DNA of 64,000 nucleotides from Dehalococcoidia bacterium. Lineage in GTDB: Bacteria > Chloroflexota > Dehalococcoidia > Lucifugimonadales > UBA3495. The stretch is taken from contig JAKUNL010000001.1 in NCBI GenBank assembly GCA_022451925.1, positions 141,157-205,156 on the forward strand, in the 5' to 3' direction. Each line of letters opens with the position of its first letter. Position 1 is the first letter of the stretch. A program made the translations under genes and the position numbers. Of this stretch, positions 2,455 through 26,961 are shown one piece after another. The notes beneath the pieces are model-generated. The model was not told the origin of the DNA. It did no database searches and was given only the letters and a program-made list of their open reading frames with translations.

Positions 2455-3216
2455 CTACGCCGACTGGTAACGGTCCAATACCTCAGAGGAGAAATCTGCG
2501 TTGGTGTAGGCCTTCTGCACGTCGTCCAAGTCCTCCAATGTGTCCAAAAGGCGGAGAGTTTGTTCCGCCTGTTTATCGTCCAGGGCAATAGTGGTCTTGG
2601 GAACCATGGAAAATTGTCCGGCTTCTGGTGGAACTCCTTCATCTGCCAATACCTTTTGCACATTTTGCAGTTGGTCAATAGCGGTGACGATCTCCAGATA
2701 CTCATCTTCGAACTTCACATCGTCTGCACCGGCATCGATAGCAATCATACTTAGTTCTTCCCCGCGTTCGATGTCCTTCATCTCCAAGCCAATCACGCCC
2801 AAATGGTCAAAGTTCCAAGCGACACATCCGCTCTCACCAAGGTTACCCCCACCTCGACTGAAGGCAGACCGGACGTCAGAAGCAGTGCGGTTACGGTTTG
2901 TAGTCAAAGCTTGGAGTAATATGGCTCCACCTCCAGGACCGTAACCTTCATATGTAATCTCCTCCAATACTTCGCCGTCGTTACTCTCTCCGGAGCCCCG
3001 TTTCACGGCCCTGGAGATACTGTCTTGAGGCATGTTGGCGGATTTCGCCTTTTCCAGTACCAGGCGCAAGTGGAAATTCATATCTGGATCTGGCCCACCG
3101 CCATTCTTGACAGCAACAGCCAGTTCACGACTGATTTTGGTAAATAACACACCACGTTTGGCGTCCGCCGCGCCCTTCTGATGTTTAATAGTTGACCATT
3201 TAGAGTGACCTGACAT
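2455..3216 (-). CDS. yebC: YebC/PmpR family protein
   Basis: MSGHSKWSTIKHQKG, YEGYGPGG, LEDLDDVQKAYTN; usual position upstream of ruvC. Confidence 0.96.
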   Translation of the reverse strand: MSGHSKWSTIKHQKGAADAKRGVLFTKISRELAVAVKNGGGPDPDMNFHLRLVLEKAKSANMPQDSISRAVKRGSGESNDGEVLEEITYEGYGPGGGAILLQALTTNRNRTASDVRSAFSRGGGNLGESGCVAWNFDHLGVIGLEMKDIERGEELSMIAIDAGADDVKFEDEYLEIVTAIDQLQNVQKVLADEGVPPEAGQFSMVPKTTIALDDKQAEQTLRLLDTLEDLDDVQKAYTNADFSSEVLDRYQSA

Positions 3217-3369
3217 TTCACATTCCTCCTGGAAACCTCGACGATCGATAAGCAGAACAATTCTTCCACGGGCATCTGGACGTTTAAGATATATCTAATT
3301 GTTAGGCATCAAGCTCATTCCTATCAGACTCGATTCTAGCATCAGCCCGAAGCGAGGGTCAAAGAGATT

Positions 3370-3921
3370 TCAGCGCAGACCTTCGGGTAAATCCACAACC
3401 ATCAAACCTGTATCTATGTCAATTTCGCGTACAACGGTTCTTAAGGCAGGCACTAAAAGGTTTTTATCGCCACCAGTTATCACGTAGACGTCATTGGCAC
3501 CGGTTTCTAATATCTCAGCAAGTTCGCCGAGATCCTCCCCGTCAACGGTTCGCACCAAAAGACCGAGAAGCTGGTAGTGGAAATACTCGCCTTCATCTGC
3601 TATAGGAACCTCAGATTCTGTGACACATAGCCAGTATCCGGTCAGTCTAATCGCCAGATCCCGATCGAATAAATCTTCAAAACCAATGATCAGTTCAACA
3701 GAACCTTTACTAACTGTGGACCGGCTCTTGGAAATCTGGTAGGTCTGATCTTCAGCCACTACCCCATCCTTAGAGAGCATTAGGATTCTACCTTCATCGA
3801 AACGCCCAAGCACGTCACTAATGGGTCTAACACGAATCTCTCCAGCACGACCATGGGCACCAAGAATTCGGCCAACAGATATTAGGTCGTTCGCGGGCGG
3901 ATTGGATGGATAATCAGACAT
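3370..3921 (-). CDS. rimM: 16S rRNA processing protein RimM
   Basis: VGRILGAHGRAGEIRV, GEYFHYQLLGL, ETGANDVYVI, LLVPAL; follows rpsP-khpA. Confidence 0.95.
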   Translation of the reverse strand: MSDYPSNPPANDLISVGRILGAHGRAGEIRVRPISDVLGRFDEGRILMLSKDGVVAEDQTYQISKSRSTVSKGSVELIIGFEDLFDRDLAIRLTGYWLCVTESEVPIADEGEYFHYQLLGLLVRTVDGEDLGELAEILETGANDVYVITGGDKNLLVPALRTVVREIDIDTGLMVVDLPEGLR

Positions 3922-3969
3922 CGTGGAGTCCGAGAGATGGTGAAATCCCAGACAGCGGAGGAGAGTAAG

Positions 3970-4197
3970 TTATACGATTTCCAAGACGGCTTGGCTACCG
4001 TCTTTCACTGCGGCTACCCGTAAGAGCACTCGAATTGCCTGAGCCACACGACCCTGGCGCCCAATAACTTTTCCTTTGTCTTCATCGGCGACCTGCAGAC
4101 GAAAAATGATACGTCCATCCTCTACGGACTCGGTTACCACCACCGCGTCAGGGTCGCTGGCGAGTGATCGGGCTATGTACTCAATCAATTCTTTCAT
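3970..4197 (-). CDS. khpA: KH-domain RNA-binding protein (KhpA/YlqC)
   Basis: MKELIEYIARSL...DKGKVIGRQGRVAQAIR; between rpsP and rimM. Confidence 0.93.
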   Translation of the reverse strand: MKELIEYIARSLASDPDAVVVTESVEDGRIIFRLQVADEDKGKVIGRQGRVAQAIRVLLRVAAVKDGSQAVLEIV

Positions 4198-4251
4198 AGG
4201 GTATTTAAAATCTGAGGGAAACTGTTTTGGACAATGAGGGGGCAGGAGCTG

Positions 4252-4659
4252 TTATTCAGCAGGCGCCTCTCCATTGCCGGATTCTTCTACGGCCTGCGCT
4301 TCTTCTACTTCAGTTTCCTCTGATGGACCATCATCTGTTGGTGCCACGACCGCGGCAGGCGCTCCGCCACTGGATGTGTCAGCGTTCTTCTTCGTGGCAG
4401 TCTTCTGGGTCTGTGTCCGCTCTATTAAACCATTTTGATCCATGATCCTAGCCACGGCGTCAGACGGAACAGCTCCCATACTAAGCCAATGAGAAGCACG
4501 TTCATTTTTTAATGTCACTAAAGGTGGGTCTGCCATCGGATCGTAGTTGCCAATCCATTCCAGATAAGAACCATCTCGTGGCGCGGTAATATCCGCTACT
4601 ACAATTCTGTAAGAAGGTCGGCCTTTCTTGCCGACTCTAGCGAGGCGAATCCGAATCAT
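4252..4659 (-). CDS. rpsP: 30S ribosomal protein S16 with acidic low-complexity C-terminal extension
   Basis: IRIRLARVGKKGRPSYRIVVAD...PRDG...IGNYDP...WLSMGAVPSD. Confidence 0.97.
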   Translation of the reverse strand: MIRIRLARVGKKGRPSYRIVVADITAPRDGSYLEWIGNYDPMADPPLVTLKNERASHWLSMGAVPSDAVARIMDQNGLIERTQTQKTATKKNADTSSGGAPAAVVAPTDDGPSEETEVEEAQAVEESGNGEAPAE

Positions 4660-4709
4660 TTAACTCTCTATTCTCCTGGGTACCGTCATTGCAGCACCCG
4701 TGCGTGGCG

Positions 4710-4738
4710 ATTTTACGGCGAGGTCGGTTTATTGTCAA
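4710..4738 (-). promoter_or_regulatory. Sigma70-type promoter of rpsP-khpA-rimM
   Basis: Minus strand TTGACA-17 nt-TAAAAT. Confidence 0.75.
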
Positions 4739-4842
4739 ACAAGCGACGCCTAAATCCTGGCTAAAATATGAATGACCGGCGTATGGAAGCAATCAGTTGC
4801 CACTTAATAGCAAAGCGCGACTTTGCCGGTTCTCAGATAATT

Positions 4843-4905
4843 AAAAATGGCCGGGCCCGTCTTTTTTTCTGATGAATTCGCCAGACAAAAAGACGGGCCC
4901 GGCCA
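4843..4905 (-). terminator. Intrinsic terminator (19-bp perfect inverted repeat followed by a U-run on the minus strand)
   Basis: TGGCCGGGCCCGTCTTTTT (4848-4866) / AAAAAGACGGGCCCGGCCA (4887-4905); A5 at 4843-4847 reads as U5 on the minus strand. Confidence 0.75.
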
Positions 4906-4948
4906 ACTCTGGGTTATTGTGCTCGCCCTTAGGTACAAACCGGGGTCA

Positions 4949-5098
4949 AGGGGCGATGGTAGACATTGGCCTGGGCCCGACGTACGGGATAACTTATTTC
5001 GAGCTGTCCGCTACGAAACAATCACCTCGTCGTGTCCAGACTGATGCCTACCATCGCCCCTGCGTATTAAACTATCATCCATATACCTTCACCTCCTT
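4949..5098 (-). other. Small-ORF/long-hairpin element 1: SD AAGGAGGTGA, 23-aa ORF (5082-5011, MDDSLIRRGDGRHQSGHDEVIVS) embedded in a long fold-back hairpin
   Basis: Perfect SD at 5098-5089, ATG at 5082, TAG at 5013-5011; 14-bp perfect inverted repeat 4949-4962/5048-5061 extended by imperfect pairing up to an apex just after the stop codon. Confidence 0.6.
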
Positions 5099-5125
5099 CA
5101 AAAATTCCCGCTAAGCGGTTAAGGT

Positions 5126-5155
5126 ATTCTAACAATAGGGATTTTTCAGTGTCAA
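5126..5155 (-). promoter_or_regulatory. Strong sigma70-type promoter driving element 1
   Basis: Minus strand TTGACA-18 nt-TAGAAT with TGn extended -10. Confidence 0.75.
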
Positions 5156-5240
5156 TAGAATTTCTCCGTTATAGCGTGGTTTTTATCTCGTGTTAACCGG
5201 GGTTGAGGCGTTAAAAAGTTGGCTCAGGGTTATTTATTCA

Positions 5241-6179
5241 ATGCGTATAGTTTTCATGGGAACTCCATCCTTCGCAGTCCCGGTACTCACCAATTTAACG
5301 AGTATAAGCGATAGCCAGGTCGTCGGCGTTTACACACCCCCGGACCGTCCATCCGGACGCGGCCGTCGATCTCAATCCTCGCCGGTCAAAGAGTACGCTC
5401 TTAAACACGGCCTGCAAATTTTCCAACCAAATAATTTTCGATCTCCAGACATACAGAATCAGTTAGCAGAATTAAGACCTGACGTAATCGTCGTCGCCGC
5501 ATATGGGAAACTACTTCCCAAACCAATTCTTGATCTGGCACCCTTGGGCTGCCTCAACATCCACCCATCTATACTCCCGAGGTACCGAGGCCCGTCTCCT
5601 GTGGCCACATGCCTTTTGAGTGGCGACCTGATTACAGGAGTCACCATTATGCTGTTGGACGACGGTATGGATACAGGAGCACTCATTGCCCAGCATGAAT
5701 ACTTCTTAAAAGGTGATGAGACAGCCGAACGACTGACAGTAGAATTGTTCGAACTCGGCGGAGAGTTGTTAAAAGAGACCCTGCCCAAGTGGCAGTCGGG
5801 AGAATTGTTATCAGAACCCCAAGATGAGTCTAAAGCTTCTGTCACTAAAAAATTCGAGCGGTCAGACGGCCTAGCTGACTGGTCGTTAAGTGCGACAGAA
5901 CTCGAACGCCGAGCGAGAGCGTTCACACCCTGGCCAGGGCTATTTACGAACTGGAATAATAGTATTCTCAAGATTATTGAAGTTTCCACAATTCATTCGT
6001 CGTCAACAGAATTTGTGCCAGGAACTGTAGTTGGAACCAATCACCGTGATGTCGCAGCAGCGGTAGCAACAAGCGAGGGATTTCTGGGACTGCACAAAGT
6101 CCAGATCGAAGGAAAGCGAGCACTAGACGCCAGAGCTTTCCTGAACGGTTCACCGTCTTTCATTGGCTCACAATTGTAG
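5241..6179 (+). CDS. fmt: Methionyl-tRNA formyltransferase
   Basis: MRIVFMGTPSFA, VVAAYGKLLP, CLNIHPSILPRYRGPSP, GMDTG, RAFTPWPG; start moved to ATG 5241. Confidence 0.96.
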   Translation: MRIVFMGTPSFAVPVLTNLTSISDSQVVGVYTPPDRPSGRGRRSQSSPVKEYALKHGLQIFQPNNFRSPDIQNQLAELRPDVIVVAAYGKLLPKPILDLAPLGCLNIHPSILPRYRGPSPVATCLLSGDLITGVTIMLLDDGMDTGALIAQHEYFLKGDETAERLTVELFELGGELLKETLPKWQSGELLSEPQDESKASVTKKFERSDGLADWSLSATELERRARAFTPWPGLFTNWNNSILKIIEVSTIHSSSTEFVPGTVVGTNHRDVAAAVATSEGFLGLHKVQIEGKRALDARAFLNGSPSFIGSQL

Positions 6180-26520: not shown

Positions 26521-26961
26521 GGAGGGTCATGCAGGCTGGGTGATCGCCGTTCTTCTATTGTGGAAGGAGGGAGGAAAGTCCGGGCTCCTCTGGGCAGGGT
26601 GCTGGGTAACGCCCAGGCTTCTAGCGTCTGCGGTAACGCTCCGTTAGGAGACGGAAAGTGGCACAGAAACATACCGTCCTTCTATCTCTAGAAGGATAAG
26701 GGTGAAATCGGACGGTAAGAGCGTCCGACCGTTTGCGGCGACGCAACGGTGGCTAAACCCCACCTGGAGCAAGGCCAAATAGGGGGACATAGGCGCCTGG
26801 CCAGTCCCCGGGTTGGCCGCTTGACTGCGACGGTAACGTCGTTCCGCCAAAAGCGGACATACGCCGGCTTAACCACCGGCGTTTGGGCTAGATAGATGAT
26901 CACCACCTTCCCCTTGCGGGGAGGATACAGAACCCGGCTTACAGGTCTGCAGAACCCCTCC
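26521..26961 (+). ncRNA. rnpB: RNase P RNA (bacterial type A-like)
   Basis: GAGGAAAGTCCGGGCTCC, GGAAAGTGGCACAGAAA, GGTAAGAG, GGCTAAACCCCACCTGGAGCAAGGCCAAATAG, AGATAGATGATC, ACAGAACCCGGCTTA; terminal P1 pairing GGAGGG.../...CCCTCC. Confidence 0.96.

Follow-up and report, generated by a model that had tools for sequence, protein, structure and literature searches.

Here, we describe a conserved, previously undescribed RNA of Dehalococcoidia/SAR202 bacteria that is present in four families of one order and came to light in a 64,000-nucleotide stretch of the genome of a Dehalococcoidia bacterium (GTDB order Lucifugimonadales, UBA3495; GenBank assembly GCA_022451925.1, contig JAKUNL010000001.1, positions 141,157 to 205,156), hereafter the window. 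The element extends from approximately position 5155 to 4843; here and below, coordinates are those of the 64-kb window and refer to the minus strand unless stated otherwise. Comparative folding indicates two conserved folds of the RNA that exclude each other, namely, a long hairpin formed by segments S1 and S2 (state A) and an alternative in which S2 pairs with a third segment, S3, together with a helix P5, ahead of a U-tract (state B). Segment S1 lies inside a 23-codon mini-ORF (hereafter uORF). With moderate confidence, we propose that translation of this mini-ORF would open the antiterminator hairpin, likely letting an intrinsic terminator form, such that the element would operate as a ribosome-sensing attenuator-type switch. 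SAR202 bacteria are uncultured and abundant in the dark ocean, and to our knowledge, almost no RNA regulators have been described in them. No description of the element was found in literature searches, including searches that combined SAR202 with small RNAs, with subscription journals and supplements outside their coverage.

Conservation and distribution of the element

Searches with blastn detected the element in 27 of 41 genomes, the source genome included: in all 19 other genomes of the same genus (81-95% identity), in all 5 other genera of the family (75-84% identity) and in 2 of 16 other families. A degenerate 22-nt pattern derived from the 5' arm of the hairpin matched at least 120 stretches in the species collection, nearly all titled as metagenome-assembled genomes of Dehalococcoidia, SAR202 or Chloroflexota. 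From these, 80 stretches were retrieved, and 78 contained the whole element, the remaining two (L075 and L125) being chance matches. In total, 102 copies, corresponding to 88 distinct sequences, were reduced to 82 sequences below 95% identity; these make up the alignment denoted A1. A covariance model built from 50 of the A1 sequences was then run on 151 genomes sampled across the order and found the element in 20, with no match in the other 131. The matches fell in family f1 (4 of 4 genomes, plus the source genome), f5 (5 of 5), f14 (5 of 5) and f49 (four genomes).

A weak match of 38 bits was obtained in a further family, f40 (locus L188, genome G064). This locus has in common with the element the SD-ATG-AGUUUA head (SD, Shine-Dalgarno sequence) and the layout of a uORF plus a terminator, but the hairpin is absent, and the locus was not counted as a member. 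The look-alike, at positions 1500-1660 of L188, contains a 17-codon ORF and its own terminator, and a T-box leader (RF00230, 130 bits; region 1806-2064) lies about 150 nt downstream of it. The gene after this T-box is presumably an acetolactate synthase gene, a guess from the start of the protein that was not confirmed by a scan.

A first-pass annotation of the window, made from the sequence alone, had taken the region for a discrete transcription unit on the minus strand with its own promoter and terminator, and the comparisons support this view and show the unit to be strongly conserved. The promoter (5126..5155) consists of a -35 box TTGACA at 5155-5150, an 18-nt spacer with a TGn motif and a -10 box TAGAAT at 5131-5126, and fits the consensus at 11 of 12 positions; it had been called near-consensus. 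Such a match taken alone is within chance, given that the promoter scan returned 2 promoter-like sites in 1.5 kb against 1.6 expected from shuffles; sequence alignments show that the promoter is kept in the relatives. Transcription is predicted to start at about 5119. The 5' end of the predicted transcript forms a small stem-loop, P0 (CCGC-UUA-GCGG, 5108..5118), read from the sequence and the alignment, in which pairing is kept in 97.5% of cells for the three core pairs and in 93.7% for the outer one; in 2 sequences, one pair has changed in a compensatory manner. For the 286-nt RNA, the computed folding energy is -132.7 kcal/mol (z = -8.6), and none of 200 shuffles was as stable. On the other side of the start, an RNA contig of run X1 (depth 7.4) spans the fmt side from 5118 to 5300 and ends at 5118, adjoining the predicted start of the element; the divergent fmt-side and element transcription units may be directly adjacent or share a few bases.

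State A, the long hairpin

The consensus fold obtained with RNAalifold comprises 28 pairs in a hairpin that runs from 5061 to 4949. The first-pass annotation had recognized a hairpin here, correctly as to its presence, but underestimated its extent. The stop codon of the ORF falls in the apical part. The 5' arm, S1 (5030..5061; an A followed by GGGGCGAUGGUAGGCAU, then GUCUGG, C and CGA), is located inside the uORF; the apical part (4982..5029, delimited by sequence, alignment and fold) is variable and contains a second SD-like sequence, GAGGUGAU, along with the uORF stop; and the 3' arm, S2 (4949..4981), participates in both the consensus fold of state A and the alternative fold of state B. 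Two portions of S2 each have a choice of partner, the inner portion GUCGGGCCCAGGCCAA (4981-4966) pairing with either S1 or S3, and the end UCGCCC (4956-4951) with either S1 or GGGCGA at 4928-4923.

Across A1, 99.5% of cells are paired in state A, compared to 33-42% in slid controls. Five pairs show compensatory changes, for example, the closing pair (AU47/UA16/GC9/CG3) and the pair 119:209 (UA61/CG19). When the alignment was shuffled, none of 500 shuffles matched the observed percentage paired, the number of cells changed on both sides or the covariation score, and 25 of 500 matched the count of further pair types. Both S1 and S2 are nearly invariant over more than 30 nt each. The assignment to the minus strand, previously argued from inner G-U pairs, is borne out by the alignment, in which frequent G.U pairs fit the minus strand only (columns 116:212, G.U in 73 of 82; columns 123:205, U.G in 61 of 82). 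An additional outer helix suggested earlier (AGGTATA/TGTACCT) had to be abandoned, with 51% of cells paired across the 82 relatives against 33-49% in slid controls.

Probable conservation of the mini-ORF as a translated element

A 10-nt SD sequence (AAGGAGGUGA, 5089..5098) is located 6 nt upstream of the ATG at 5082-5080, precisely as first read (AAGGAGGTGA, 5098-5089), and the uORF that follows (5011..5082) has the 23 codons reported for it, encodes 23 amino acids and ends at TAG 5013-5011, crossing S1 and terminating in the apical part of the hairpin. In A1, the ATG is present in all 82 sequences, GGAGG occurs at most 22 nt upstream of it in 80, the ATG is placed exactly 22 nt ahead of the hairpin in 78, and 75 have 23 codons with the stop at hairpin position +47. 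The uORFs of the other 7 sequences span 20, 18, 11 or 10 codons; in four of these, the invariant arm is read in a different frame, with its UAG serving as the stop, and the other-frame copies end in GRW-stop after 10-11 codons. In f49, the third frame is used, giving 19 codons and an unrelated peptide, so that three frames are used across the lineages. The start codon, the SD and the spacing are kept while the frames differ; therefore, translation through S1 appears to be selected and not the peptide. Judging from these sequence comparisons, selection thus seems to act on the uORF as a translated element rather than as a protein.

The first-pass annotation had allowed for a small-protein gene, and the possibility that the locus encodes a 23-residue protein (MDDSLIRRGDGRHQSGHDEVIVS), with the RNA structure merely modulating its translation, draws on the perfect SD, the ATG, the 23-codon length in 75 of 82 sequences and the invariance of residues 9-13, 15, 16, 18 and 20 among these 75 copies, bar one change at residue 11. 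We consider this explanation highly improbable. The invariant residues coincide with invariant nucleotides of the hairpin, wobble positions included, and this wobble invariance holds across lineages in which the neighbouring Fmt protein is only 40-81% identical; codons 2, 3, 6-8 and 21-23 vary freely; and, despite the ATG in 82 of 82 sequences, the frame relative to the hairpin varies, with 7 of the 82 relatives and f49 using other frames.

No regulatory codon runs were found in the uORFs of the 82 sequences, and lineages that use different frames have different peptides. The sequence AUAGUUUAA (codons 3-6, 5066-5074) is nearly invariant in all four families as well as in the weak f40 match and places stops in both other frames. 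No pairing partner or rare codon was found that accounts for its invariance; pausing at the invariant UUA (codon 5) was considered and rejected, UUA making up 11.6% of the Leu codons in 1106 long ORFs and thus not being rare.

State B, a predicted alternative terminator

The first-pass annotation had overlooked a second, conserved partner of the hairpin 3' arm located downstream and able to build a terminator. Inner S2 (GUCGGGCCCAGGCCAA) is complementary to UUGGCCGGGCCCG (4906-4894), and a U-tract follows directly. The segment S3 (UUGGCCGGGCCCGU, 4906-4893), with its U-rich tract at 4892-4885 (together 4885..4906), and inner S2 form a predicted conditional intrinsic terminator, T1. In addition, the S2 end UCGCCC is complementary to GGGCGA (4923..4928), the 3' strand of helix P5, and is predicted to pair with it once S1 is unavailable. 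When the RNA was folded from S2 onward without S1, a 12-16-bp S2:S3 stem formed in most of 39 representatives, enclosing P5 and abutting the U-tract.

The S2:S3 stem (T helix) is paired in 89-92% of cells in two registers among 76 aligned copies, against at most 50% in slid controls, and the P5 core is 92.5% paired, with CGUCC:GGACG double changes in two independent lineages. Covariation is seen at 16:85 (AU43/GC13) and, within P5, at 25:71 (AU24/GC11), as well as at 29:62 (CG67/UA2). Furthermore, both S2:S3 partners change together between families, f1 having UCGGGCCCAGGCC with GGCCGGGCCCGA and f49 UCGGGUUCGGGC with GUUCGGACCCGA. Duplex energies of cognate and non-cognate combinations between families (S1:S2 and S2:S3) were also computed and set aside as uninformative; the segment lengths differ and the shared GGGCCC core dominates.

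The competition between the two states was modelled by folding transcripts cut at the end of S3, where the polymerase would be on the U-tract, either free or with the uORF/S1 held unpaired. Seventy-seven of the 82 sequences were used; L047, L048, L052, L067 and L083, in which the S3 pattern was unmatched, were left out. The free transcripts adopted state A in all 77 cases and the T helix in none, and with the uORF/S1 blocked, the T helix formed in all 77. The mean energy was -94.7 kcal/mol for the free and -58.9 kcal/mol for the blocked transcripts, making state A about 36 kcal/mol more stable. Of the 9 nt of the tail after S3, five or more are U in 74 of the 77 (f1/f14-type copies).

We also considered a static arrangement, in which an ordinary sRNA or leader has a constitutive terminator, the SD-ATG-ORF is untranslated or irrelevant, and S2:S3 belongs to a single pseudoknot that also includes the outer 17-bp stem. 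Only A4966 is common to this stem (5060-5044 with 4966-4950) and to the pairing of inner S2 with S3, which makes an H-type pseudoknot feasible on paper, and translation of the uORF is a prediction from sequence. Nevertheless, the conservation of the ATG (82/82), the SD (80/82), the 22-nt distance (78/82) and the stop position (75/82) across frame-changing lineages is hard to explain without translation, and the inner S1:S2 helices (P2/P3), which exclude S2:S3, are themselves conserved with co-variation at the family level. A static fold is therefore very unlikely in our estimate.

Proposed mechanism and the second terminator

Returning to the attenuator-type switch, the proposed course of events starts with S1 and S2, which are transcribed first. 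Given this order and the far greater stability of state A, a transcript that is not translated would retain state A, the antiterminator, and the polymerase would pass T1. If a ribosome were to initiate at the strong SD and to translate, or terminate in, the uORF, S1 would stay unavailable; S2, thus freed, would pair with S3, P5 would form, and the polymerase would terminate at approximately 4886-4892 (T1). The net logic would be that plentiful translating ribosomes yield short transcripts and scarce ribosomes yield run-on transcription.

What follows T1 differs among species. The 19-bp terminator reported in the first-pass annotation was found as described, as a perfect 18-19-bp hairpin at 4904-4849 followed by AUUUUU. 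Its origin had been overlooked: it is a species-specific inverted duplication of S3. In the second terminator, T2 (4843..4870; 3' arm 4866-4849, U-tract 4847-4843), the 3' arm is, on folding, a perfect complement of S3 and its U-tract. This arm (region 4849-4870) stems from the insertion, in the window's species, of 20 nt that duplicate S3 and its U-tract in inverted orientation. The T2 segment is a gap in all 27 other aligned sequences, the 95%-identical L002 included, and is thus confined to this species. Most members of the genus instead have a weak second terminator, CCGGC-loop-GCCGG-U5, the 5' arm of which is complementary to S3 (alignment, by eye). In these species, state A would disarm the weak second terminator, since free S3 takes its 5' arm, and state B would arm it; the run-on transcript would then enter rpsP-khpA-rimM. 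In the window's species, free S3 would pair with its duplicated perfect complement (T2, 4904-4849), and most run-on transcription would end at approximately 4843.

In two studies, contigs of this species break off within the 3' half of the palindrome that makes up T2, one of run X1 at 4861, where an Illumina adapter follows, and one of X5 at 4868. Either RNA processing within the long duplex or arrest of the reverse transcriptase could account for these ends, the two being indistinguishable in contigs.

Possible outputs: the rpsP operon or an autonomous RNA

The genomic setting points to the rpsP operon as one possible output. The rpsP-khpA-like-rimM genes are located 211-738 nt downstream on the same strand in 72 of the 78 pattern loci, with fmt divergent upstream, such that the position upstream of rpsP, for which the first-pass annotation had advised a check of related genomes, is conserved in these loci. 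In the window, the operon (2455-4659) comprises rpsP (S16; 4252..4659 by ORF list and neighbourhood comparison), a KhpA-type KH-domain gene, rimM and a yebC/TACO1-family gene; the genes that come next after rimM in E. coli, trmD and rplS, are absent. In three loci (L121, L126 and L068), no promoter is recognizable between T1 and rpsP. Moreover, contigs that belong to a close relative and come from marine metatranscriptomes span the element, a spacer of 130 nt and the beginning of rpsP (X5 record 14, depth 102; X3 record 10), and contigs of the window's own species run from rpsP past its own start to 4822 (X2), 4861 (X1) and 4868 (X5). Own-species contigs (at least 95% likeness) cover only the part of the element core that is shared with relatives, 4949-4988, leaving 5117-4989 and 4948-4862 uncovered, a distribution that in contigs cannot show absence.

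Several observations weigh against a translation-dependent terminator controlling rpsP. The proximal 8 pairs of the T helix are invariant and contain the self-complementary GGGCCC, which leaves state B with modest support from covariation. For the window itself, a terminator is predicted at the end of either state. A consensus-like rpsP promoter follows the element in 69 of 75 relatives; in the window, this promoter, as anticipated in the first-pass annotation, was located by the scan (TTGACA-17-TAAAAT, 4738-4710, transcript start 4703; 4703..4738) and is active, with an X4 contig ending at 4703 with an extra tail that we take to resemble a template-switch oligo. A second terminator-like hairpin is present between T1 and the rpsP promoter in 36 of 75 relatives, as counted by a crude finder that missed T2 of the window. 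In f5, f14 and f49, the element is not beside rpsP, and rpsP has a plain promoter there. In f49, no U-tract follows S3, and a distinct canonical terminator is formed in either state; the conserved S2:S3 pairing of this family must therefore have a purpose other than termination. Finally, the RNA data consist of unstranded contigs, which cannot show 3' ends, absence or strand and may contain DNA.

Alternatively, the bistable RNA might itself be the product, an autonomous riboregulator, trans-acting or protein-binding and possibly of the Sinorhizobium meliloti rnTrpL type discussed below, whose conformation or 3' end would report translation, the adjacency to rpsP in f1 being inherited gene order of no regulatory significance. 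We regard this as possible but not probable. In three of the four families, the element is located away from rpsP and has both a promoter of its own and a canonical terminator. The downstream gene there is a convergent luciferase-like monooxygenase gene or encodes an AAA_17 protein, a glyoxalase-type protein or a 275-aa ORF (presumably an alpha/beta-hydrolase, as guessed from its start and not confirmed by a scan); it is convergent in two cases. The rpsP promoter in 69 of 75 f1 loci, the additional terminator-like hairpin in 36 of 75 and the retention of S2:S3 in f49 without a U-tract all fit an autonomous RNA, as does the near-invariance of more than 30 nt of each of S1 and S2, which could also arise from the two pairing partners of each S2 base combined with coding constraint. 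A weak hint in the same direction is that, in run X1, contig depth over the conserved core reaches 92-136, summed over species, compared to 38 for the rpsP contig. Such a product would leave unexplained the U-tract after S3 in 74 of 77 f1/f14-type copies and the three lineages that lack an rpsP promoter, and a search for trans targets in the own genome (blastn-short of the element, with no accessibility model) gave chance-level complementarity only, the best being 17/18 nt in a coding region on contig C45 (E = 2.1). For the translation-gated switch, the output may accordingly be read-through into rpsP-khpA-rimM in f1, an autonomous RNA, for example a released attenuator RNA, or both.

Comparison with known RNA families

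At gathering score, the only Rfam 15 family detected in the whole window is the bacterial RNase P RNA class A (26528-26957, plus strand, 255 bits), with nothing on the element. Between 4600 and 5300, relaxing the cutoff to E<=10 added only microRNA-type artefacts and the far-sub-threshold Plastid-psbJ-5, SorX and PsrR1; the microRNA and psbJ matches were dismissed as artefacts of the perfect palindrome. Likewise, no Rfam family was detected on the element in the loci of seven relatives, and no described ribosomal-protein (r-protein) leader family was matched at gathering score or at E<=10.

The first-pass annotation had suggested a comparison with the 6S and signal recognition particle (SRP) RNA models, having noted that a rod-like shape with a bubble allowed a 6S-like RNA; neither model matched the element. 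For 6S RNA (RF00013), there was no match in 4600-5300 at E<=10, in the own genome or in 5 relatives, and the candidate closing helix is not conserved. The blank for RF00013 is weak evidence because the search works in only 5 of 14 control genomes. No SRP RNA, small or large (RF00169/RF01854), was found in the own assembly, which is 90% complete; the large SRP RNA was present in 5 of 5 relatives at a locus other than that of the element (in G002, at about 510 kb, with the element at about 264 kb), and the SRP RNA of the own genome is probably in the unassembled part. A link with transfer-messenger RNA (tmRNA), suggested by the resemblance of UCUGGACACGACG in S1 to a 5' motif of this RNA, was rejected: the real tmRNA is on contig C3 and has an unrelated 5' end. 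ARAGORN detected no tmRNA in the window. In the f14-like locus L117 (898-1362), smpB is directly upstream of the element on the same strand; no connection with tmRNA was found.

Like 6S RNA, the element is 200-odd nt long, mostly double-stranded and, as predicted for it, strongly expressed; unlike 6S RNA, it has no match to the model and no conserved closing stem, and it does have a conserved SD and uORF. 6S RNAs are not known to have an SD or a uORF. The possibility that the element is a 6S-like or other housekeeping RNA, or an autoregulatory leader bound by an r-protein such as S16, thus strikes us as very unlikely. On its side are the formally open 6S slot in the own genome and 5 relatives, the rod-like hairpin, the strong promoter and the position beside a ribosomal operon. 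On the regulation of this trmD (rpsP) operon in E. coli, a 2024 review states that nothing is known (PMC10931766). Apart from the lack of an RF00013 match and of a conserved closing stem, the housekeeping alternatives are disfavoured by the presence of SRP RNA elsewhere in the relatives and of tmRNA on contig C3. An r-protein leader, for its part, has no need of a translated uORF that is conserved, and in three families the element is found away from rpsP.

Relation to known attenuators

The E. coli ampC attenuator has reportedly been proposed to be a ribosome-binding, growth-rate-sensing terminator in which ribosome binding prevents termination. As in that case, ribosome availability would be read by a leader in which an SD and a start codon are next to a terminator; the sign in the element would be opposite, and there is no homology. 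In trp-type attenuators, the absence of translation leads to termination. The predicted sign is inverted in the element as well, the absence of translation giving read-through, and the element has only three competing segments. In contrast to amino-acid attenuators generally, it lacks regulatory codon runs and is independent of the peptide frame, and it precedes an r-protein operon that mostly has its own promoter or, in three families, is free-standing. The resemblance to the leader-peptide attenuators of the trp, his, leu and thr amino-acid operons (PMC1183508) consists in a short leader ORF over segment 1 of a set of competing helices that includes an intrinsic terminator and its U-tract, the position of the ribosome picking the fold (here a prediction).

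The Bacillus subtilis vmlR leader offers a closer parallel, having an SD-driven mini-ORF at or in a stem, where ribosome occupancy re-partitions an anti-antiterminator, an antiterminator and a terminator and the peptide is largely irrelevant (PMC9226507). Unlike the element, in which occupancy is predicted to lead to termination and no resistance gene is involved, vmlR uses a stalled ribosome to induce read-through into a resistance gene (PMC9226507). There is no sequence or Rfam relationship between the two.

For S. meliloti rnTrpL, a trans-acting sRNA that derives from an attenuator and has a functional leader peptide, efficient leader translation is reported to cause termination and the released attenuator RNA to act alone, including on ribosomal genes, which provides a precedent for a switch that acts both in cis and in trans (PMC6614838, 10.1101/606483, PMC7968998). 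The element differs from it in lacking Trp codons and any homology and in belonging to another phylum, and the search of the own genome for trans targets was negative. In the E. coli mdtU 5'-UTR, similarly, uORF translation controls premature termination, and such fragments can be stable functional RNAs; the E. coli cases are Rho-dependent or act as sponges for known sRNAs (PMC7815308), unlike the element, which has an intrinsic terminator and can itself stand alone. By analogy, then, the element appears to be nearer to uORF sensors of the state of translation, such as vmlR, than to classical attenuators, and also near rnTrpL and the E. coli 5'-UTR fragments.

Implications

The element defines a new conserved family of structured RNA, without an Rfam match, in SAR202/Dehalococcoidia. 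Its predicted logic is unusual, with three segments, translation leading to termination and its absence to read-through, and ribosome availability itself may be what is sensed. The free-standing copies raise the question of the role of a translation-gated RNA that controls no downstream gene. Since the compact architecture is fully specified by sequence, it is directly testable in vitro, without culturing the organism. More tentatively, and as a suggestion we ourselves find somewhat doubtful, the element might be a self-contained gauge of free ribosomes, in which a perfect SD and a frame-indifferent mini-ORF would measure spare translational capacity and convert it into transcript length: when ribosomes are scarce, transcription would run on into the 30S-biogenesis operon, and when they are plentiful, a short RNA would be produced that perhaps acts in trans. 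If true, such a gauge would act as a homeostat of ribosome supply without calling for any protein or small-molecule ligand, and it would be confined to only a few families of SAR202.

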